A program made the position numbers and the translations under genes. 64,000 bases of DNA. Origin: Klebsiella phage phiKp_32. Location of the stretch: sequence record LC768500.1. The stretch is one strand, 5' to 3'. The notes under the pieces are model-generated. The model did not search any database and had not been told where the DNA came from. It saw nothing but the letters and a program-made list of their open reading frames with translations. This document shows, piece after piece, positions 1,773-37,386 of this stretch. Position 1 is the first letter of the stretch; each line of letters begins with the position of its first letter.

Positions 1773-2066
1773 ATGTTTTATGATTTAGTCAAGGTTTGCA
1801 AGGAACTCGTATTTTCTCATACCTTCAACGAAAGCAATCCTGACAAGGGTTACTTCGATACCTGGAAGTGGCGTAAGTTACTCATTAACGTGGTAAGCGT
1901 AACGTATCACACCCCTAAGCTTGCCGCGCTCAGTCCGCTCTTAAAGGCTATTTCCAGTAAGCAAGACGGGCTGACAATTTCCCCACAAACCGACAGCCAA
2001 GGACGGGTCACGCGAATTACGGTGACACACAATAATAAATCAGTGGGTTTCAGATTCAAACGTTAA
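1773..2066 (+). CDS. hypothetical protein
   Basis: ORF with GAGGAA RBS; tandem with neighbours. Confidence 0.5.
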   Translation: MFYDLVKVCKELVFSHTFNESNPDKGYFDTWKWRKLLINVVSVTYHTPKLAALSPLLKAISSKQDGLTISPQTDSQGRVTRITVTHNNKSVGFRFKR

Positions 2067-2079
2067 AGGAATAATCGTC

Positions 2080-2652
2080 ATGGGATACATCGAGCTTAAA
2101 CACGGAACTGATAAAGACTACGTTCCCTACCGCACCAATGACATCTACGAATTAGATGAAGATATCACCGTCTTAACCGACGATACTCGGGTTATCGACG
2201 AAAATAAAGAAACCTACTTTTTTGTGCCAGGGGTGGACGCAGAAAACATCAAGGTTAAGGTCGGTGACGTGAACCAGTTTTTACTTTTCTGGCCCGTGAA
2301 GGAAGGGGTTGAAATCAGACTTGTTTCGTTTGGGACTGGTAGAAAAACCACAAAAGTGGTTGGGTTCCTCATGACCGAGTTTCATCACCATTCCATTTAC
2401 GCCAGCGTGTTCTCGTCCCTGCTGCATCGAGAATCGAAAATGAATTTCCGCAGTAATAAACTGGCTACAGGGATCATGTGTAAATTACTTCACCGGTGCC
2501 TCAAAAGCTTTAAGCTCAAGCATCCTTCGCTCGGACGTATCTATCTCGATATCGTATCTGATAACGGTGTTATTAAGTACGTTAACCAACACGGTAATTT
2601 TAGTGGATTGTATTATCGATTCAATCCAGGATTTAAACCAGAATTACGCTAG
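2080..2652 (+). CDS. hypothetical protein
   Basis: ORF, RBS AAGGAA upstream. Confidence 0.55.
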   Translation: MGYIELKHGTDKDYVPYRTNDIYELDEDITVLTDDTRVIDENKETYFFVPGVDAENIKVKVGDVNQFLLFWPVKEGVEIRLVSFGTGRKTTKVVGFLMTEFHHHSIYASVFSSLLHRESKMNFRSNKLATGIMCKLLHRCLKSFKLKHPSLGRIYLDIVSDNGVIKYVNQHGNFSGLYYRFNPGFKPELR

Positions 2653-2660
2653 GAAAAAAT

Positions 2661-3203
2661 ATGTCAGATATTATCGCTTACAATAAAGCGCGGCTGGTTA
2701 ATGGGTTTGAACTCGTTTGCCATCATCGCACTATTCACCTGTTCGAAGATGTTTTCGAGAAGGGCAGGTACAATAAAGAGTTCGTTGCTAAATTTGACGA
2801 ACTGGAAGTATTTTTGGATGTTCGTTACGCGATCATCTTAGGGAGAAAAGATAAAGATCTCACACTGCATCTAATTCGCAGTAATGCAGCTCGTGAGATC
2901 GTCAGCTGGGATTATCATTACAAGTCCAATGATAACCGATCTGACAATTGGAAGATGGAGGCCATCGGGCAGTTTATCATCAGTGACATGGAGCAGGGGT
3001 ATTTCTCCCTCTCCCCTGGTTATCGAAGTGATATCAACGACCTACTGACTTATATCGGTGGTCAAGAGAAAGAGGTCAATATTCGCAATACAGAAATCAG
3101 CGTCAGTGAGGGTAAATTTAACTTCGTAGGCCGTAACGGACAGATCGGCCCGGGTTTGTTATCAGAGACCAAACCCGTTAACCTCATTAAGTTGTGGGCA
3201 TAA
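2661..3203 (+). CDS. hypothetical protein
   Basis: ORF, RBS AGGAAA; hairpin 3207-3240 follows. Confidence 0.55.
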   Translation: MSDIIAYNKARLVNGFELVCHHRTIHLFEDVFEKGRYNKEFVAKFDELEVFLDVRYAIILGRKDKDLTLHLIRSNAAREIVSWDYHYKSNDNRSDNWKMEAIGQFIISDMEQGYFSLSPGYRSDINDLLTYIGGQEKEVNIRNTEISVSEGKFNFVGRNGQIGPGLLSETKPVNLIKLWA

Positions 3204-3272
3204 TAATAACTCCTACTCCCGATAAGGGAGTAGGAGTTATTAACTTTTTTGTTTTTAGAATAGGAGGGTGTA

Positions 3273-4526
3273 GTGCACGATGATTTTTATGACCGCCATG
3301 ACCACGTTTTCGTTTTCGTGCAAAAATTTGATTTAGCTCATCCTGAACTAATAGACCGAACCGTAGAGGAGAAATTCGAAATTTATACTAAGGACTATCC
3401 CGATTATGATTGTTGGGCTCAACTGGTTTATTATTTCAAGGACGGCGGGGTGTTTTCACCAGAAGGGGTGAGACTTTCAATGAGGGGGATGGTGGTTTCT
3501 CCGTTGAAAAGACTCAACCGACCCATCCACGAAAGAATAAACGAAATGGTGTTCAGGGAAGGGGCGAAAAAACAGTCAGGTTATCCTAGGATAATGATCG
3601 GCGATTTAGGACTTTCAATGCACAGACTGATCGCATCTACTTTCATAAAAAGACCCGATCATTTAAAGCTTATCCCATTTATGCTTTTACACGTCAATCA
3701 TAAAAATGGGATTAAGAACGATTACAGACCTAATAACTTAGAATGGACTACTCCTAAGGAAAACGCGATCCATAGCGCCATGACGGGACTCACGCCACAG
3801 GGACTAGCCCACACAAAAACAATATCGGTACTCGGGTTCTTCTCTTTACCAGGAAAGTGGTTCGGGAAAACCATTTCATTTAGTGGAAATAAAGAGATTA
3901 ATTCCGCAGAACTGTTTTCTCAAACAATGATACACGAAAAGGTTAGGGAAGGTGGGTTGTACAAGGGTTTTAAGTGGATTAGCGTATCTGAAGAAGAGTA
4001 TAACAACCATCCACACGGTTTAGAAGATCCAGAATTTAAGAGATTTATCGACGAAGGGGGAAACACTTACCTTGATGAAAGAACTAATTTTCTTATAGGG
4101 ACAGTGATTCACGAATGCGCTTATAAAGGGCTGCAATTTATTATTTTCGGTGAAACAATGATCGAGCGTAACGGATTCCCGGCTAATCGTTTAATGGAGT
4201 TTTATAAATCCAAAGAATCGGATTCTTATTTATCAAAGGGATGTCTTTTTGTGAGGGGGGATCTGTCCGACCTTGAAAAATTTCCGCGTGGAATACCCGA
4301 TGAGCTGGTAACCATTTTATCTAGGGAGAGGGGAGATAAGTTCTATCCCGTGATCGCCAATAAAGATGGAGAGGATAAGTTATTTGCATCTAAAGAAGAG
4401 TTATCCGCGAACGGGTTTATTTATAAAGAGGTTAAGAAAAATATACGGGGAGAGACGGGAAGTCATAGGGGTCACGCATTCAGATGGGCGGAACGATTAT
4501 CGGGGTCGTTCCAACCGTCAGACTAG
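3273..4526 (+). CDS. free-standing HNH homing endonuclease
   Basis: ..HVNHKNGIKNDYRPNNLEWTTPKENAIHS.. HNH motif; GTG start with AGGAGG RBS. Confidence 0.75.
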   Translation: MHDDFYDRHDHVFVFVQKFDLAHPELIDRTVEEKFEIYTKDYPDYDCWAQLVYYFKDGGVFSPEGVRLSMRGMVVSPLKRLNRPIHERINEMVFREGAKKQSGYPRIMIGDLGLSMHRLIASTFIKRPDHLKLIPFMLLHVNHKNGIKNDYRPNNLEWTTPKENAIHSAMTGLTPQGLAHTKTISVLGFFSLPGKWFGKTISFSGNKEINSAELFSQTMIHEKVREGGLYKGFKWISVSEEEYNNHPHGLEDPEFKRFIDEGGNTYLDERTNFLIGTVIHECAYKGLQFIIFGETMIERNGFPANRLMEFYKSKESDSYLSKGCLFVRGDLSDLEKFPRGIPDELVTILSRERGDKFYPVIANKDGEDKLFASKEELSANGFIYKEVKKNIRGETGSHRGHAFRWAERLSGSFQPSD

Positions 4527-29705: not shown

Positions 29706-31148
29706 ATGCAACCTACTAATATTACGTTATTGAACCCAAACAAAGTGGCTTGGGCTCTCATGAAAGCCGTGACGTCAACAGACGTCCATGAGGGGATGAC
29801 CAACAACCTTCATGAAGATGGTTTATACTCTCCAACAATCTTCGGTCGTGTCGGTACCGACCAACGAGATAAAACTCAATCTTACATCAATGTTAAGATT
29901 CCTGTCTTCAACCCGACTTATTTTAAGGCTTTGATTGGGTTAAAGGGTTTGTATCTCGGAATAATCAAAGGGACGGAATACGCCCTTTGGGACGCATCAG
30001 AACGCGACTTCATAAAATCAAACCTCCTGGAAGGAGAAACCGGCTACAGTTTCTTTATGCGTCACTTTTACGACTTAGAGCCTAAGTTAAACGAAAGTTA
30101 TAAACGCAAACAGCGCGTAGAACTCTTTAATAAATTTAAAGACATCGCGTTGACTAAAAACATCATTGTCCTGCCGGCTGGTATTCGCGATATTCAAATA
30201 GAACCTAACGGACAAATCGTCGAGCCTGAAATAAATGATTTCTATCGTAAACTGATCTTCCGTAGTCGCAGCGTGGTTATCCAGGAAGGTGAAGAAGATA
30301 ATCCGATTTACGATAACATCCGTTGGGCGATTCAAAGCGTGTTTAACGATATCGATGATTATATCTTCCGACTGATGGAAGGTAAGCGTGGATTCTTACA
30401 GCGCCGAGTCTCAACTCGTGGTGTCGTCGGGGGTACTCGTAACGTTATTACCGCTCGTAAAGTTTCTGTTGCTGATGCGGATGATGATAATGGGGTTGAC
30501 GTTAACACCACAGATATCGGGATGTATCAAGCGCTGTTGGGTTTCCAATACGTTGCACGATATGCGTTACTTAAAGGTTTCTTAAGCCGCGTGTTTACGG
30601 TAGGGTCAAGTACGGCTAAACTCGTCGACCCCAGAACCTTTGAATATCAATACGTTGAAGTTGAGAGCAACATTGTTGACAAATGGTTGTCAGCCGATGG
30701 ACTCACCGCTTTGTTCAACGGATTCGGCACCAGGCACTTGCGTCATAAACCGATCAAAATCAACGGTTATTACATGGGCCTGACCTATGATGACGGTAAA
30801 TATGTCAAGTTACTCGGTGACGTAACCGAACTTCCTCCTGGGTTTGATAAGAAGTTCTGCAAACCATTGACTTACATGGAACTCTTCTATTTAAGTTGTG
30901 TCGAAGAAATAGAAAAGAGGATGCTTCAGGTTACCCGTTATCCGATTACTGGGATGGGGTCCATCTATCCTAGCTTCATCAAAATCAAAACAACGACTAA
31001 CGCCCAAAAAAGAATTATTTTAGATGATTACTGGGAAGAAGGTTATCGTTGCACATACTACCCAGTCAGAGAAACTAAACCAGATTATTTCGACGCCATG
31101 AGTGTCGATGGTAGTCGGTTAGGATTACTCGGCGGGGACTTCGATTGA
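29706..31148 (+). CDS. RNAP beta-prime-like subunit, N-terminal polypeptide, exon 1 (ends ..LLGGDFD inside the catalytic DFDGD motif)
   Basis: ..EDGLYSPTIFGRVG.. (cf. beta-prime RDGLFCARIFGP), ..IIVLPAGIRDIQ.. (cf. VLPVLPPDLRP), ..GKRGFLQRRVSTRGVVGGTRNVITA.. (cf. [23 protein letters not shown]), ..TRYPITGMGSIYPSF.. (cf. NRAPTLHRLGIQAF). Confidence 0.8.
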   Translation: MQPTNITLLNPNKVAWALMKAVTSTDVHEGMTNNLHEDGLYSPTIFGRVGTDQRDKTQSYINVKIPVFNPTYFKALIGLKGLYLGIIKGTEYALWDASERDFIKSNLLEGETGYSFFMRHFYDLEPKLNESYKRKQRVELFNKFKDIALTKNIIVLPAGIRDIQIEPNGQIVEPEINDFYRKLIFRSRSVVIQEGEEDNPIYDNIRWAIQSVFNDIDDYIFRLMEGKRGFLQRRVSTRGVVGGTRNVITARKVSVADADDDNGVDVNTTDIGMYQALLGFQYVARYALLKGFLSRVFTVGSSTAKLVDPRTFEYQYVEVESNIVDKWLSADGLTALFNGFGTRHLRHKPIKINGYYMGLTYDDGKYVKLLGDVTELPPGFDKKFCKPLTYMELFYLSCVEEIEKRMLQVTRYPITGMGSIYPSFIKIKTTTNAQKRIILDDYWEEGYRCTYYPVRETKPDYFDAMSVDGSRLGLLGGDFD

Positions 31149-31525
31149 TTGCAAATCACATTTGCACAGTCCCACTAGACGCGAAAGCTCTAGTGCGTAT
31201 CTCCTTGAATTGTCTGGGAAGCTCACAAAAGTCTGATGCCTGCTTAGCAGGAGCCGATAAGGCAGAAATAAGTTCAGACCTGACCTATGCTAAACAATAA
31301 GGCTAAGGGTTATTAACAAGGGGCCATCAGCAGCGAACCCTACTTCGGTAGGAGACGTTCAACGACTAGAGCGGAAGCGCTCGTACTCTTTACAGGGAGT
31401 AAAGAGGAAGTGGGGAGAGGGCTAAGTTCGGCACTAGCCGAATACGTCTAAGATATAGTCTCGACGTCCAAGGTAAGACTTGGAGTACGCTAAAGCGTAG
31501 GGGTGTGGAAACACCTTAAGAACCG
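31149..31525 (+). mobile_element. group I self-splicing intron without an ORF, interrupting the beta-prime Mg-binding motif (DFD|GDQ)
   Basis: P7-like strands GTTCAACGACTA (31357-31368) and ..AGATATAGTCTCGAC (31451-31465) closely match Tetrahymena GUUCACAGACUA / AAGAUAUAGUCGGAC; P9-like hairpin TCCAAGgtaagaCTTGGA; GNRA-capped hairpins; the 5' exon ends in U and the intron ends in G (31525); the downstream in-frame sequence resumes GDQLNS..AIAEAKALMGRR.. (cf. [22 protein letters not shown]). Confidence 0.8.
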
Positions 31526-31699
31526 GGCGACCAGTTGAATTCTAATTCAATCAACGGAGAGGATGCTATTGCTGAAGCTAAAGCTTTAATGGGCAGACGC
31601 GATTACTATATCACCGGCACGGGGCAGTTCCTTTACAGTCCAACGGTGGAACCTCACGAATTCTTATTCCGAAATCTCAGTAACGGACTCAACCTATGA
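31526..31699 (+). CDS. RNAP beta-prime-like N-terminal polypeptide, exon 2 (GDQLNSNSINGEDAIAEAKALMGRRDYYITGTGQFLYSPTVEPHEFLFRNLSNGLNL*)
   Basis: In frame with exon 1 after removing 31149..31525; restores D-F-D-G-D-Q; stop TGA at 31697 overlaps the ATG of the next gene (ATGA). Confidence 0.7.
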   Translation, partial: GDQLNSNSINGEDAIAEAKALMGRRDYYITGTGQFLYSPTVEPHEFLFRNLSNGLNL

Positions 31700-34600
31700 G
31701 CGTATTATACCAACAGTTCTTCCGTAATTTTGTTCTTAGGAAAAAACAAGAAATTACAAATCCTAAGTTTCACCATCTGACGGATATGGTGTTGCCGAGA
31801 GAATCGGTAATGATGTATCTACCGAAGACGCAAGAAGATATCGGCCCAAGTACCGAGGAGCCCTTAATAGGGACTTACCCTGATGGGGTTAACATTTATT
31901 TCAACAGTCTTTATATAACCCCCATCGGAAGAACTCGACCCGTTCCCTTTAACGAAAAGCAATCTATACAGCTTTATCGTAAAAGCCATTTCAAATACAA
32001 CTGGGCGAGGACGCTGTCCAACTACCTGAGCCGTCGTCAGGAACTGTTGGTAAACAACATAGCGATGGGACCCCATCGTCACCGTTATGTCTTTACTCGC
32101 TTTGTTCAGTTCGAACGAGCTTACAACCAACTGGCTTCTGGGATTGAAGCCGTTAAGCAAATGAGTAAGGAAACGACCCGCAATCAATACTGGCGAATAG
32201 AACTTCCTCCAAGCATCCCCGATTATCGTCAACTGCTGGTAGCCGTCGATCATTATAAGAAGGCGTTCAAAGACGGTGTTTATACCACCACTGACAATCA
32301 GGCTGTACTCCCGTTTAAGGGCTACGGTTCTTATTGGATCATGGATTGGTACCTCTTCTTGATAGGCGAAAAGAACTACAGTCTGTTTAATCGCTTAGAT
32401 AAAGAAGAAATGGATAAACTCCACATCATCTTTAGTCATAATGGACTCAGCTGGGTAGTTAACCTTGGTATCGTCTCTCAATGGATGGAAGAACTTAACG
32501 ACAAGCACGGCAATCCCACCAGTATGCGTGTTAACGCGGCTAAACGGTTCCTGCTTGGATTTAGGGCTCTGATAGCGGGCGGCACGCTAAGCGAAACCAT
32601 AGAGGAGAAATCTCATGCCGCTGAGAATGTCGGATTGGGTACTGGAACGCCAGAAGAGGAAAGAAGAAGCCAGGAAGCTAATAAGGAATCAGAAGAAGAA
32701 CCGCTGGATCTCGATGAGTCTGAAGAGATTACTGATCAGTCTGTTACTATGCTTGATCTTTTCATGGGCAGCAAAAAGGCTGATACAGAATCTGATGATG
32801 ACCAAGGAGGAGAGGATTCAGGAGGAGCTGATGAGAATCACGGAGAAGAGTGGGCTGCAGCGGTCGACGATGAATTACTTTATAACGCCGAAACAGAAGG
32901 ATTAGGGGAAACCAAGAAAGTTATTTTCAGTACCCCAGAATCTGGTATCCTGAGAGCCTTAGAGCAAAGAGCCAAGGCCGGGACATTAACTGTTGCGGAA
33001 CAACGTTATTACACTAATCTCGCGCAATCATACAAAACGATCAAAATGCCTAACGGTGAAAGTCTTGAAAGTTTTGTTAAGATCGATCAGGCCAAACTCC
33101 GCCACCTTCCTGCTAAAATTGCTCCTGAGATGAGAGGGATCATCGACCCTTCTCAGCTACAAAGTAGAGCGACCAATCTTAAAACGAAATACTCTGAAGA
33201 ATTCCTTAATCGGGATATAGCCGGGATGATACTGAACATTCAGAACGCCGGTATCGTTTTAACCGACCTGAAACGTGAACGTATCGTCAATGCGGAATCG
33301 GCTTACGACGTTTATACCATGAACGTCCATCCTGTTGGCGGATCGCCTAAGACCGCAATGTTCCGCATCCCCAAAATTGACAAAGACGGAACCTTCACTG
33401 TCGATGGGGTAAAACAACATCTTCAACTTCAGCGTATGGAAATACCAATTCGTAAGATAAACTCTGAGCAGGTTGCTTTGACGAGTTATTATGACCGCAA
33501 GATCATGATGTCTCGTTCGACAAAGGTTGCAGATGATTACGGATTGTGGCTGAACAAACAACTTATTCTGTTGGGTGAGGCCGGTAAAGTATCTGGGGTG
33601 TTGGGCGATGTCTATAATCGTAGTTACGCTGTTCCTCGTACTTATTCTGCGTTAGCCAAGCGGTACCGAACATTAAAGGCTGGTGGGATTGAATTCAACT
33701 TCGATCTTTCTAGTCTTGTTGGCTCAGAGAAAGAAATCAAGAAACTGATTTCTCCTAACTGGGTTCCGGTGGCTAAAGAAGGTGACGGCTTCATCTTTAT
33801 GGATGATGGCGGTAACCTTTACAAAGATAAGACACACATTGGTTCTTTCGAAAGCCGCTGTGGAATTGACACGACGAAGGCCCCAGTCGATATCGTTACG
33901 GTGAATGTAAACGGATACGCTTTCCCTATCGGTGTAGTGCTCGCTTACTACTTCGGATTCGACGAACTTCTTAAAGCACTCAATGCTGACTATCGGACCG
34001 TTCCGGCCGGTGAGAAAGTTCGGATGGGTCAGGACGAATACGCGATAACCTTTAACGACGAAACGCTTATTTTCAACAGACGGGATAGTTTAACCGCACT
34101 TATCATGGGCGGATTCCGGAAGTTAGCGAATCTCAGTAACTTCTCTCGCTATGACCTAAACACAAAAGGTGTATGGGTGCCGGCTATCGGGGATAAGAAA
34201 GTCAAACCTGGTCATTTTGATGAAATGCGTTTGATGTTCGAAATGTTCATCGATCCGATCACCAAATCTGAACTGGTTAAAAGGGGCTATCCGACTGAGC
34301 TTCATTATCTCATGATCGAAGGCGTGAAAATGCTGAACACCGATCGAACTGCTCACGAGATAGAATTAACTGAGCAACGTTTCGTTGGGTATGAACGTTT
34401 TGCTGGCCGAGTCTATAATGAGATTGTTAAGTCAACGCGTCAATTCAGGAATAAAGGTAACGACAAACGTTTCACCTTCGATATGAACCCTGAAGCGGTT
34501 ATCATGAGTATCATCACCGATACAAGTGTAAACCTAGTCGAAGAGGTTAACCCCATCCACGAAATCAAAGAACAGGAAGTTGTTACCTTTGGTGGTACTG

Positions 34601-34860
34601 GTGGGCGAAGTGAAACGACAATGGTCAGACGTACACGTGGTCAGCAAGAGAACTATGCTGGGGTTATCTCCGAGGCTGGTAAAGACTCCGGTAAAGTTGG
34701 GTTCGTGAGTTACTTAACGAGCAACCCTAAGATCGCCGATTTCCGTGGTAACGTCGACCTAAGCATGCCTGACACTCTGAGCGGCAGACTGTCGGTAACA
34801 TCCAACCTTTTAGCTCACTCGACCTCCGATGACCCAAAACGGTTAACTGTAATATTTTCC
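31696..34860 (+). CDS. RNAP beta-prime-like subunit, C-terminal polypeptide, exon 1 (contains a large acidic insertion)
   Basis: ATGA-overlapped start; C-terminus ..DPKRLTVIFS resembles beta-prime ..LPRVAELFE(ARRP); acidic insertion EEERRSQEANKESEEEPLDLDESEE.. Confidence 0.6.
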
Positions 34861-36243
34861 TGAGTACAATATTATGTTGAGACTCAGGAGCAAATTAAGA
34901 TGAAACCAATTGAGTGTAAAGATTTTCCAGGGTATTACGAGATACCCAATTTTTCCAAGTACTGCATTAATAAAAAATCAGATATTATTCATAAACGCAA
35001 AAACAAAAAAATCAGACAGTACGACGTTAAATCTTCTGTGACGTCCAGGCCAGAAACCGGGTGTTATAAAAGAGTGACGATGTATTCTGATGATAAAAAA
35101 CTCCACGCCTTTTCGGTCCATCGGTTAATGGGCTTGGTGTTTAAACATCCTGGTGCCGGGTTTCACTCTCTACAGGTCCACCACGGAGATGGGATAAAAT
35201 TTCATAACGACATCGATAACTTAGAATGGGTTACACCCAAGACCAATATTGTTTTAGCAAACGATTATTACATGGGTAAAGCTAAAATACCTGTCCAAGC
35301 TAGGTCTAAAAACGGTGAAGTTCTAAATTTTTCTAATCTAAGTGATTGTGCTAAATTACTCGGGATCCATAGGACAACCCTTATCTCCAGATTAAGTACG
35401 TTTGGAGAAAAGTTTGTTCACCCAGAGGGCTATCAACTGAGGTACGGAAATTCCGATAAGCCATGGGTTGCACCAGACGAAGAATCAGCTAAGGACTTAG
35501 ATGAGTTTTACTCGTCACCCATTTTGGTAAAAAATCTCAACACTGGCGAAGTGAGGGAATTTAAAACAGCCAAAGGCGTGATGGAATTAATAGTAAGATC
35601 TCCGTCAAGCATAAGTACTTTGAGTAATGATTCGACTCAACCCATTGTGATGGGTAAAGATAACGTACCGTACATTCTCATAAAAAAATATTCTGGGGTC
35701 GATTTCAGGAGAGTTGACGATCCAATGAATGATTTTGTCGAACAACAGACCAATACCAGAACGGTAGTTGCGACGAATGTTACGACTAATGAAAAGAGAG
35801 TTTATACGACCGCGCAGGCGTGCGCATCTGATTTTGGAATAGGAAAAACTACACTTAATTGGCGTCTTAAGAAACCCATCCCTGGTGTTTTCGACGGATG
35901 GATTTTTAGATATTACGAGGCCCGTATGGGAGGAAACACCCATACGCAATAATCTTTAATTGTTCTGGGACGATCTCGAAGACTCTCATACCAAAGCGGA
36001 ATACGAAAGTATAGACGTCATGGTTTTAAAAGTTGAGAAGAGAGACGATCTAGCAGCGAAGCACCTACGTATCTTCGAGAGAAGAGATAGGGTGAACGTT
36101 CAACGACTATGGGTGAAACTCCCAGTAGATTTTACATGAAGTAATTTCGAAACAGGATTCCCTTCGAGTGAGCTGAAGAAGCTCGATACTCATGGGTGAA
36201 ATATAGTCTGCTCCCTACGGCGACGTAGCGGCGGGTGTCATAG
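34861..36243 (+). mobile_element. group I intron carrying an HNH homing endonuclease ORF; boundaries approximate (about +/-10 nt)
   Basis: Same P7-like strands as intron 1: GTTCAACGACTA (36098-36109) and AAATATAGTCTG (36199-36210); HNH ORF located 5' of the ribozyme core; flanking coding sequence is continuous by homology (..VIFS | HTGLKEATGHKALFSG.. cf. [19 protein letters not shown]). Confidence 0.7.
34900..35952 (+). CDS. intron-encoded HNH homing endonuclease (NUMOD4-like N-terminus, HNH core, C-terminal HTH)
   Basis: ..CKDFPGYYEIPNFSKY.., ..HRLMGLVF..QVHHGDGIKFHNDIDNLEWVTPKTN.., ..SDCAKLLGIHRTTLISRLS.. Confidence 0.75.
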   Translation: MKPIECKDFPGYYEIPNFSKYCINKKSDIIHKRKNKKIRQYDVKSSVTSRPETGCYKRVTMYSDDKKLHAFSVHRLMGLVFKHPGAGFHSLQVHHGDGIKFHNDIDNLEWVTPKTNIVLANDYYMGKAKIPVQARSKNGEVLNFSNLSDCAKLLGIHRTTLISRLSTFGEKFVHPEGYQLRYGNSDKPWVAPDEESAKDLDEFYSSPILVKNLNTGEVREFKTAKGVMELIVRSPSSISTLSNDSTQPIVMGKDNVPYILIKKYSGVDFRRVDDPMNDFVEQQTNTRTVVATNVTTNEKRVYTTAQACASDFGIGKTTLNWRLKKPIPGVFDGWIFRYYEARMGGNTHTQ

Positions 36244-37386
36244 CACACCGGGTTGAAGGAAGCAACCGGACATAAGGCTCTGTTCTCCGGGGTTCAGCAA
36301 AGCCAGGGGGTGTCTGCGACTAACTATCAGACCAACTGGTTACGTACCGGGGATGAATTGGTTATCGCACACCGGACATCCGAGCTTTATTCTAAACCAG
36401 CTAAACTCGACGGTAAAGTAATAAAGCTTACCAAAGAAGGCTTGGTGGTCGAATACAAGGATGGAACGACGGACAGTTATCCGTTAGGCTTAACCATCGG
36501 CAGTGCGTCTGGTGAATTCCACAGACACACAAGAGTCACTGATTTAAAAGTTGGTGATAGTTTCAATGCCGGGGATATTATCGGTTGGGACGAAATGTAC
36601 TTTGAAAGGGATTTGGCTAACCCTAATCAGGTGGCGTGGAAATGCGGGGTAATGGTGAGGATTGCCTTTGTTGAGAATCAGTTCACGTTTGAAGACTCCA
36701 TTGAGGTTTCTAAAGACTTCGCTGAGCAGACGAAAACGCCTTATTTGAAGTTGAAAGAATTCTCTTTAGACTTCGAACAAACTCTCGTCCCTCACGTAGA
36801 AGTCGGGTCGGAAGTCGACATGGACGCGATTTTATGCTCGATAGAGGATCCCCACGTAAGTGGTCTGGACGATTCTGATGACACTTTCTCAGGATTAGAG
36901 CGTTTAGGGGTTAAACAAATTCGGTCTAACCATCATGGCCGTGTTGTTAAAATTGAGTGTGTTTATAACGGTTCAATTGAAGACATGTCAGATAGCCTGA
37001 AAGGGTTTGTGGCTAAGTTAGATAAAGAACGTCAACAGCTCAATAAGGTCACTCATACCGGGATCGTTAACGGTAACGTTGGGGGAAACACGTATGTTAA
37101 GAAAGCCAGTGTTGAACCTAATCGGGTTACGGTTAAAATCTTTATTGAGGATCTCAATAGCTCCGAAACCGCCGATAAATTTGTGGTCGGTAACCAGATG
37201 AAAGGTACCGTGGGGAATATCGTGAACTACACAATGCGTACACTGGATGGTCGTATTGTCAAGATTCGATTCTCATTTAAATCGATGTTCAACCGTATGG
37301 TTCTGAGCTTACGAGATAAAATGGGCATCAATGAAGTTAACGCCAACCGCACTTCGGCAGCAGTTAAAGCTTTCAGAGGAAAATAA
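36244..37386 (+). CDS. RNAP beta-prime-like C-terminal polypeptide, exon 2 (no start codon of its own)
   Basis: Frame open from 36244 with no ATG; ..KEATGHKALFSG.. and ..HTRVTDLKVGDSFNAGDIIG.. match the beta-prime C-terminus ([31 protein letters not shown]). Confidence 0.6.
   Translation, partial: HTGLKEATGHKALFSGVQQSQGVSATNYQTNWLRTGDELVIAHRTSELYSKPAKLDGKVIKLTKEGLVVEYKDGTTDSYPLGLTIGSASGEFHRHTRVTDLKVGDSFNAGDIIGWDEMYFERDLANPNQVAWKCGVMVRIAFVENQFTFEDSIEVSKDFAEQTKTPYLKLKEFSLDFEQTLVPHVEVGSEVDMDAILCSIEDPHVSGLDDSDDTFSGLERLGVKQIRSNHHGRVVKIECVYNGSIEDMSDSLKGFVAKLDKERQQLNKVTHTGIVNGNVGGNTYVKKASVEPNRVTVKIFIEDLNSSETADKFVVGNQMKGTVGNIVNYTMRTLDGRIVKIRFSFKSMFNRMVLSLRDKMGINEVNANRTSAAVKAFRGK

Follow-up and report, generated by a model that had tools for sequence, protein, structure and literature searches.

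An Endonuclease-Free Group I Intron Within the Catalytic Aspartate Codons of a Jumbo-Phage Virion RNA Polymerase Gene

The Interrupted RNA Polymerase Gene

The sequence considered here is a stretch of 64,000 nucleotides (nt) from Klebsiella phage phiKp_32 (record LC768500.1), hereafter called the window, and our subject is a 380-nt intron on its plus strand (31146–31525) which interrupts the gene for the N-terminal beta-prime subunit of a virion RNA polymerase. The first exon (29706–31145, plus strand) comprises 480 codons and is 96.7% identical to positions 1–1440 of CPT_Miami_232, its uninterrupted orthologue in Klebsiella phage Miami. It ends ...LLGGDFD, the last four codons being GGG GAC TTC GAT (G D F D), and is followed at once by a TGA codon (31146–31148) which forms the first three bases of the intron. 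The second exon (31526–31699, plus strand) holds 57 codons and a stop. It opens with GDQLNSNS..., and translation starting at 31526, which reads GDQLNSNSINGEDAIAEAKALMGRR... (also written GDQLNSNSINGEDAIAEAKALMGRRDYY...), runs to the stop codon at 31697–31699. An earlier note on this DNA, made from the sequence alone, had described an intron of 377 nt starting at 31149. While its end point, 31525, stands, the start has to be moved to 31146, because the end of the open reading frame (ORF) at 31148 counts the stop codon; the last exon base is T31145, and the junction therefore joins 31145, not 31148, to 31526. The same note had called the intron ORF-less, and indeed no ORF longer than 51 amino acids (aa) is found within 31146–31525 on either strand.

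The insertion and its boundaries are established by comparison with phages which lack it. A megablast search of 29706–31702 against 50,697 phage records returned six relatives, and the gene proved to be uninterrupted in Klebsiella phages Miami, KPN8 and YC1 and in Stenotrophomonas phage BUCTxx100, which match the window in two pieces over 1617 nt with 96–97% identity. In a colinear alignment, 29706–31145 corresponds to Miami 1–1440 and the sequence from 31526 onward to Miami 1441 onward. The Miami junction reads GACTTCGAT|GGCGACCAA, and the intron-less relatives have GACTTCGAT|GGCGAC. The boundaries are unambiguous, since a shift of a single base in either direction breaks the match to Miami. 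The proposal that removal of the insertion rebuilds DFD|GDQ was thus borne out by the intron-less alleles. The split does fall inside DFDGDQ, but the local residues are GGDFDGDQ, not the NADFDGDQ that had been quoted. In an independent assembly, Logan contig DRR406566_183, a stretch of 4548 nt is identical to the window; it covers the exon–intron junction and extends 108 nt into the intron.

Exact removal of the intron restores the reading frame and gives a predicted protein of 537 aa, with ...LLGGDFDGDQLNSNSINGEDAIAEAK as the peptide spanning the junction. This protein matches phrog_2986 (PHROG 2986, "RNA polymerase beta subunit") over residues 1–532, in one stretch across the junction (E = 7e-216). 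CPT_Miami_232, also of 537 aa, is annotated as an RNA polymerase subunit and differs from the spliced product at four amino acids, none of them close to the junction. The possibility that the polymerase is virion-packaged, raised by the earlier note, agrees with the annotation of the orthologues in phages OBP and N1M2 as virion-associated beta-prime. A Pfam search of the polymerase fragments and a sequence search of the PDB with the spliced protein returned no match, so the beta-prime identity rests on PHROGs, on the orthologue annotations and on the DxDGD motif. In the double-psi barrel (DPBB) of beta-prime, this motif holds three magnesium-binding aspartates, and in both jumbo-phage polymerases the barrel domain sits in the N-terminal beta-prime fragment (PMC7598289). 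The insertion therefore separates the codon of the second catalytic aspartate from that of the third. The product of the gene is presumably essential.

A neighbouring gene encodes a virion protein of 2268 aa which includes a glycosyl hydrolase domain, and a large beta-like gene lies downstream; we take this gene order to be the gp181-gp180-gp178 arrangement of phiKZ. The exon 2 stop codon and the ATG of beta share bases (ATGA, 31696–31699), so that coupled translation of beta could require the intron upstream to be spliced out; in Miami, a separate ribosome-binding site is annotated at this place.

Ribozyme Fold and Subgroup

Identification of the insertion as a group I intron, as first suggested by visual reading of the sequence, is supported by a covariance model, by covariation and by a family profile. 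The Rfam model RF00028 (Intron_gpI) aligned over its full length (1–253) to 31153–31483 with 37.5 bits, corresponding to E = 7.9e-8 in a search of 901 nt and to E = 5.6e-6 in a search of the whole window on both strands with all families. The P7-like strands which had been quoted are present: GTTCAACGACTA at 31357–31368 and AGATATAGTC at 31451–31460 align to the J6/7-P7 and J8/7-P7 consensus of RF00028. Likewise, the GNRA loops (GAAA at 31183–31186 and GGAA at 31508–31511), the terminal G and the U at the end of the upstream exon were all found in the sequence. The folding energy of the intron has a z-score of -3.65 relative to shuffled sequences.

A secondary-structure model was drawn up manually, with the Rfam alignment and the intron of a Raoultella phage as guides. 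Each of its 80 pairs is canonical in the window. The model was then examined for covariation in a MAFFT alignment of 12 homologous introns, in which standard pairs occupied 90.3% of cells, versus 31–51% when the 3' partners were slid by one to three columns. Compensatory changes on both sides were observed for 49 of the 80 pairs, and the covariation score reached 0.537, compared to at most 0.17 for slid partners. None of 500 shuffles attained the observed covariation values, in a control which ignores relatedness between sequences. Several compensatory pairs each were found in P2, P5a, P7.1, P7.2 and the outer P8 stem, while P4 and P7 are nearly invariant. On these grounds, the fold, with core helices P3 to P8 and the P3/P7 pseudoknot, is regarded as established.

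Along the plus strand, the core is organized as follows. A 17-nt hairpin extends P1 (31150–31166; UGCAAAU CAC AUUUGCA), as obtained in both the minimum-free-energy and the centroid fold. P2 (31173–31195) carries the GAAA loop and is paired in 97% of cells, with compensatory changes in seven of its nine pairs. The 5' strand of P3 (31200–31204) pairs with 31414–31418, four of the five pairs being compensatory. The P4-P5 domain (31211–31332) contains P4 (31211–31217/31327–31332) and P5 (31221–31224/31321–31324). It is prolonged, on the same strand, by P5a (31231–31236/31274–31279), in which all six pairs are compensatory and 100% of cells are paired, P5b (31239–31251), a small hairpin (31253–31263) and P5c (31282–31311). 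The P6 region (31333–31358) consists of P6 itself (31333–31335/31356–31358; 94% paired) and P6a (31339–31352), a hairpin with a UUCG loop whose length differs among homologues.

The 5' strand of P7 (31362–31368), with a bulged C31363, pairs with the 3' strand UAGUCU (31456–31461), which was placed by the Rfam alignment and by covariation. P7 is paired in 100% of cells, matches the Rfam consensus GUUCAaAGACUA / AAGAUAUAGUCu and shows one compensatory change, from U-A to C-G, in Proteus phage 7. From general knowledge of group I introns, we take G31364-C31460 to be the guanosine-binding pair. P7.1 (31369–31382) and P7.2 (31386–31406) follow, with four of five and eight of eight pairs compensatory, respectively, then the 3' strand of P3 (31414–31418) and P8 (31419–31449), the outer stem of which is 100% paired with three of four pairs compensatory. 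At the 3' end (31467–31515), the minimum-free-energy and centroid folds predict P9 (31467–31484), P9.1 (31486–31499) and P9.2 (31502–31515), the latter with the GGAA loop. The homologues likewise have three 3'-terminal hairpins, which are not alignable with those of the window.

The extra hairpins P7.1 and P7.2, between the 5' strand of P7 and the 3' strand of P3, assign the intron to subgroup IA, the subgroup assignment having been proposed earlier as a check. The overall order, P1-P2-P3-P4-P5-P6-P7-P7.1-P7.2-P3'-P8-P7'-P9-P9.1-P9.2, is presumably that of the T4 td type (subgroup IA2), with which the window intron would also share an in-frame stop after the 5' splice site and a location in conserved codons of an essential enzyme. 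The td intron lies in a different host gene, and its ORF encodes a GIY-YIG endonuclease located in P6a.

Splice Sites and Internal Guide

The splice-site pairing was read from the sequence and tabulated together with that of nine homologues. The 5' strand of P1, GAU|UG (31143–31147, plus strand), with the 5' splice site after U31145, pairs with the internal guide sequence CAGUC (31167–31171), G31169 lying opposite the last exon base in a U31145·G31169 wobble. The terminal guanosine (omega G), G31525, defines the 3' splice site in the Miami alignment, and every member of the family described below ends in G. In eight introns at three sites, all of them after an aspartate codon, the guide GUC faces the exon triplet GAU, while in two introns at a fourth site (NG|D), GCC faces GGU. 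The guide thus switches together with the exon, which constitutes guide–exon covariation. The bases after the guide are kept as GUCCC in introns at three sites (31167–31174 in the window); only GUC pairs with the exon, and a partner for the conserved CCC was looked for in vain.

Based on these features, the following pathway is proposed. The guide CAGUC would pair with GAU|UG so that U31145 is set opposite G31169. A free guanosine bound in P7 would attack after U31145, and the freed exon would then attack after G31525. The exons would be joined as GAT|GGC, and would encode a protein of 537 aa in which the magnesium-binding triad of DFDGD is complete. On unspliced RNA, ribosomes would stop at the TGA with which the intron begins.

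An Intron Family With Four Insertion Sites

A sensitive blastn search with the intron returned 28 phage records, none of which matched at more than 71% identity over most of the intron; the exact intron is therefore missing from the phage collection. Its membership of a wider family is nonetheless established, as a leave-one-out nhmmer profile, built from 11 homologous cores without the window, matched 31163–31461 over positions 4–297 of 298 with 191.7 bits (E = 3e-58). Exact-pattern scans of IMG/VR for the intron core and for the exon–intron junction gave no match. A degenerate family pattern retrieved only three already-known phages from IMG/VR and six loci from metagenomes, two of which are chance matches.

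The related introns occupy four positions, NG|D, NAD|F, DxD|G and DxDGD|Q, in virion and non-virion beta-prime genes. In the virion gene, the window intron, devoid of an endonuclease ORF, shares the position DxD|GDQ with that of Pseudomonas phage EL (DHD|GDQ), which encodes the 424-aa HNH protein gp185. At DxDGD|Q, also in the virion gene, introns are found in Raoultella phage VB_ZK_P1 (HNH, 424 aa), in Vibrio phage VP4B (no ORF) and in metagenome contig OGVK01002527 (endonuclease ORF present). The position NAD|FDGDQ is occupied in another beta-prime paralogue by introns from Vibrio phage 2 TSL-2019 (no ORF), contig JACCDR011340897 (ORF upstream of the core) and Aeromonas phages AVP1 (HNH, 337 aa), ZPAH34 (ORF remnant) and CF8 (no ORF). 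Finally, NG|DFDGDQ is the site in Proteus phage 7 (ORF of 287 aa) and Salmonella phage SPLA3 (no ORF), again in the other paralogue. This paralogue adjoins the nuclear-shell gene in Vibrio phage 2 TSL-2019 and is presumably the non-virion beta-prime, judging from phiKZ gp54/gp55.

The closest counterpart by position is the EL intron (NC_007623), located between gp184 and gp186. It interrupts the orthologous gene at the identical site (GAT|...G|GGC), belongs to the same ribozyme family and uses the same GUC guide. It differs from the window intron by carrying gp185 and by its length of about 1.75 kb, its core is 67% identical, and exon 2 is unannotated in the EL record. The introns of VB_ZK_P1 (PV662128), VP4B (KC131130) and OGVK01002527 share with that of the window the gene, the ribozyme family and the GUC:GAU pairing, but their insertion point lies 6 nt downstream of that in the window, behind the third aspartate codon (DxDGD|Q). 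Apart from this, VB_ZK_P1 and the window are about 96% identical and have a second intron in common (see below); the cores of the two beta-prime introns are 71% identical. Core identity to the window intron amounts to 72% for a NAD|F intron, 71% for the DxDGD|Q introns and 67% for EL, and the tree carries no support values. By sequence, introns at other positions are thus closer to it than the EL intron, with which it shares its site.

Three further records were noted at this locus. Metagenome contig OEQO01000735.1 (reverse strand, oriented about 1810–3565) has two introns 9 nt apart in a beta-prime gene, with the layout NAD, intron, TTCGACGGT (F D G), intron with an ORF in its 3' part, DNMYLFF. 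The three codons of TTCGACGGT thus make up a micro-exon within the catalytic motif. In Aeromonas phages PS1 and CF8, the virion beta-prime gene contains at DFDG|DQ a different intervening sequence of about 250 nt (4044–4300), which is not alignable with the family. In Salmonella phage SPFM1 (LR535901, 2280–2700), intron and exon segments occur in scrambled order, which looks like a misassembly of the public record, and this sequence was left out of the family set for that reason.

Endonuclease Genes and Mobility

HNH ORFs are present in the homologous introns of EL, VB_ZK_P1, AVP1 and Proteus phage 7, and absent from the window intron. Compared over the full length, the HNH proteins of EL and VB_ZK_P1 share 33% identity, and both are encoded in the P1 loop. 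Where these two introns hold their 424-aa ORF, the window has the 17-nt hairpin at 31150–31166. The likeness of this hairpin to the flanks of the VB_ZK_P1 ORF was considered as a possible scar of ORF deletion and proved too weak to use. A search of the window for close homologues of the EL and VB_ZK_P1 endonuclease yielded only an HNH ORF in the second intron and, with similarity confined to the HNH domain, an ORF at 3273–4526. The latter (plus strand, 417 aa) is HNH endonuclease-like (PHROG 59, E = 1.5e-20), has no group I signal nearby and appears to be free-standing.

A decay series was observed among Aeromonas phages at one site, AVP1 having a full 337-aa HNH ORF (1350–2360), ZPAH34 a remnant of about 150 nt from the 3' end of the ORF (2200–2365) and CF8 a short P1 hairpin (2350–2380).

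The exon sequence around the insertion suggests how the intron may have been acquired. The spliced gene differs from that of Miami by 3.0% overall, and 12 of the 142 differences lie within 30 nt on either side of the junction, all of them silent (background 2.8%). Over an 80-nt flank, the window is 84% identical to all four intron-less relatives alike. A donor of this flanking exon variant was searched for and none was found. Divergence from Miami is, however, patchy elsewhere in the gene, with 12 more changes upstream of the junction, at -210 to -120, and the P value of 8e-8 obtained under a uniform rate therefore overstates the co-conversion signal. The flank pattern would fit co-conversion during homing, or selection against endonuclease recognition, and is suggestive only.

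The window intron is probably derived from a mobile intron family, other members of which have HNH homing endonuclease genes in the P1 loop, and would have been retained by vertical descent or mobilised in trans. It most likely came from a diverged donor, through homing or recombination, and such an origin would account for the cluster of silent changes in the adjoining exon sequence.

Interpretation and Alternative Explanations

We are highly confident that 31146–31525 is a subgroup IA group I intron without an endonuclease gene, in the virion RNA polymerase beta-prime N-terminal gene of a Miami-like Klebsiella jumbo phage. Its splicing is deduced from sequence, and several points weigh against the reading as a whole. 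The Rfam score, although accompanied by a significant E-value, falls short of the curated gathering threshold of 50 bits. The alignment used for covariation was not structure-guided, and the tested structure was derived from the window itself, which favours the model over the slid controls. P5b and the adjacent small hairpin (31253–31263) are 33–67% paired in distant homologues and P6a is 67% paired on this alignment, so that all three are poorly supported, and P9, P9.1 and P9.2 were placed by energy prediction only. Moreover, only three exon bases pair with the guide, and reading of the sequence beside it disclosed no convincing complement to GGCGAC that could form P10 with the 3' exon. In many phage introns, P10 is weak.

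Several of these points would also fit an element which is group I by origin and has lost self-splicing, either requiring a phage or host protein (a maturase or an RNA chaperone) or splicing so poorly that its chief effect would be to throttle production of the virion polymerase. The sub-threshold Rfam score, the short P1, the P10 looked for in vain and the lack of an intron-encoded protein would all agree with such a loss. We nevertheless judge it improbable, as all core helices are intact in the window and have been kept by compensatory change across the family, ORF-less relatives persist in Vibrio phage 2 TSL-2019, VP4B, CF8 and SPLA3, and the gene product is presumably essential. Still less credible is a gene that is truly split or dead, the ORFs of 480 and 57 aa being either distinct products or the remains of a pseudogene around an inert insertion. 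While GenBank does treat homologous arrangements as separate ORFs or leaves exon 2 unannotated, the break separates the second catalytic aspartate from the third, the inserted sequence has a complete ribozyme fold supported by covariation, and exon 2 is conserved as a protein which is in frame only after exact removal of the intron. In addition, the natural split of jumbo-phage polymerases comes after the DPBB domain, not inside DxDGD (PMC7598289). Finally, an intron from another locus or phage might have been joined into the gene during assembly, and the scrambled SPFM1 record (LR535901) illustrates that such errors occur. This explanation can practically be set aside, given that the Logan contig is identical through the exon–intron junction, that the boundaries follow group I rules exactly and that EL has a related intron at the same site.

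Beyond the identity of the intron, the distribution of the family led us to a broader proposal, which we advance tentatively and regard as rather unlikely. The roughly 18 nt encoding (N-G/A)-D-x-D-G-D-Q in nucleus-forming jumbo phages might serve as a multi-site landing pad for a single ribozyme lineage. The aspartate triad would then provide interchangeable 5' splice sites, between which the ribozyme could move without losing its ability to splice, the route being either reverse splicing or imprecise repair of an HNH nick. Copies that lack an ORF and have recoded flanks, such as the window intron, might then persist by protecting their allele from the endonucleases of co-infecting relatives.

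Relation to Known Introns and Gene Annotation

RNA polymerase introns of jumbo phages, including some in the virion beta-prime N-terminal subunit, have already been published (PMC11620839; PMC12350094 Fig. 5A; bioRxiv 10.1101/2020.12.14.422802). The kind of element described here is thus already known, and the window intron is a further, endonuclease-less case. One of these sources, a preprint, describes disruption by introns as frequent in the polymerase genes of AR9-like phages and of Staphylococcus jumbo phages (bioRxiv 10.1101/2020.12.14.422802). The elements of Bacillus phages AR9/PBS1 and of the Staphylococcus jumbo phages differ from the window intron in belonging to distant phages of Gram-positive hosts, and some of them are group II introns.

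A published example is the intron of PhiPA3, which follows two conserved aspartates of the virion beta gene and whose endonuclease, gp210, works against phiKZ when the two phages co-infect (Birkholz et al. 2024, Science; PMC11620839). Like the intron at 31146–31525, it belongs to group I, interrupts a virion RNA polymerase gene in a nucleus-forming jumbo phage and is placed at conserved aspartate codons of the catalytic region; unlike it, the PhiPA3 intron interrupts beta, not beta-prime, and encodes an active nicking endonuclease. As intron endonucleases can act as weapons between co-infecting viruses (PMC11620839), intron-occupied, recoded alleles are candidate resistance alleles.

The arrangement had been called striking in the earlier note, which overstates the case: mobile group I introns typically reside in catalytic-site codons of essential phage genes (PMC12908238), and a related intron already sits at the same site in EL. 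Within the collection of papers searched, we came across no description of an intron inside DxDGD (DFDGD), nor of the EL intron. The window intron can be viewed as the endonuclease-free, same-site counterpart of the latter. In jumbo phages, introns recur at the catalytic-triad codons of both beta-prime paralogues, and this picture of the DxDGD codons as a multi-site target in the two genes is mildly new. The understanding of how group I introns work is left unchanged by these results.

A practical consequence concerns annotation, since the gene should be described as one spliced 537-aa subunit. In GenBank, beta-prime is split or exon 2 is omitted in EL, VP4B, VB_ZK_P1, PS1, CF8, Vibrio phage 2 TSL-2019, SPLA3, Proteus phage 7, Seoulvirus phages and others, and the feature tables retrieved for the corresponding regions of EL, VP4B, VB_ZK_P1, PS1, CF8, Vibrio phage 2 TSL-2019, SPLA3 and Proteus phage 7, where the pieces that are annotated appear as separate hypothetical ORFs, list no intron.

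A Second Group I Intron in the Window

The window contains a second group I intron (about 34843–36277, core 35894–36230), which is located in the next gene, that of the virion polymerase beta subunit, contiguous in Miami. With 51.9 bits, this intron passes the Rfam cut-off, and the 11-core profile of the beta-prime family matches it weakly. Its ORF (34900–35952; 350 aa, HNH_3 and NUMOD1) lies 5' of the core. The boundary is ambiguous by 1 nt, and can be read either as CGG|GCT, as in Miami, or as CGGT|CTC, which obeys the U rule and changes Ala to Ser. The 3' part of this second intron resembles the beta-prime intron of VB_ZK_P1, and its insertion site, ...SDDPKR|A, is three codons past the DD site of the PhiPA3 gp210 intron.

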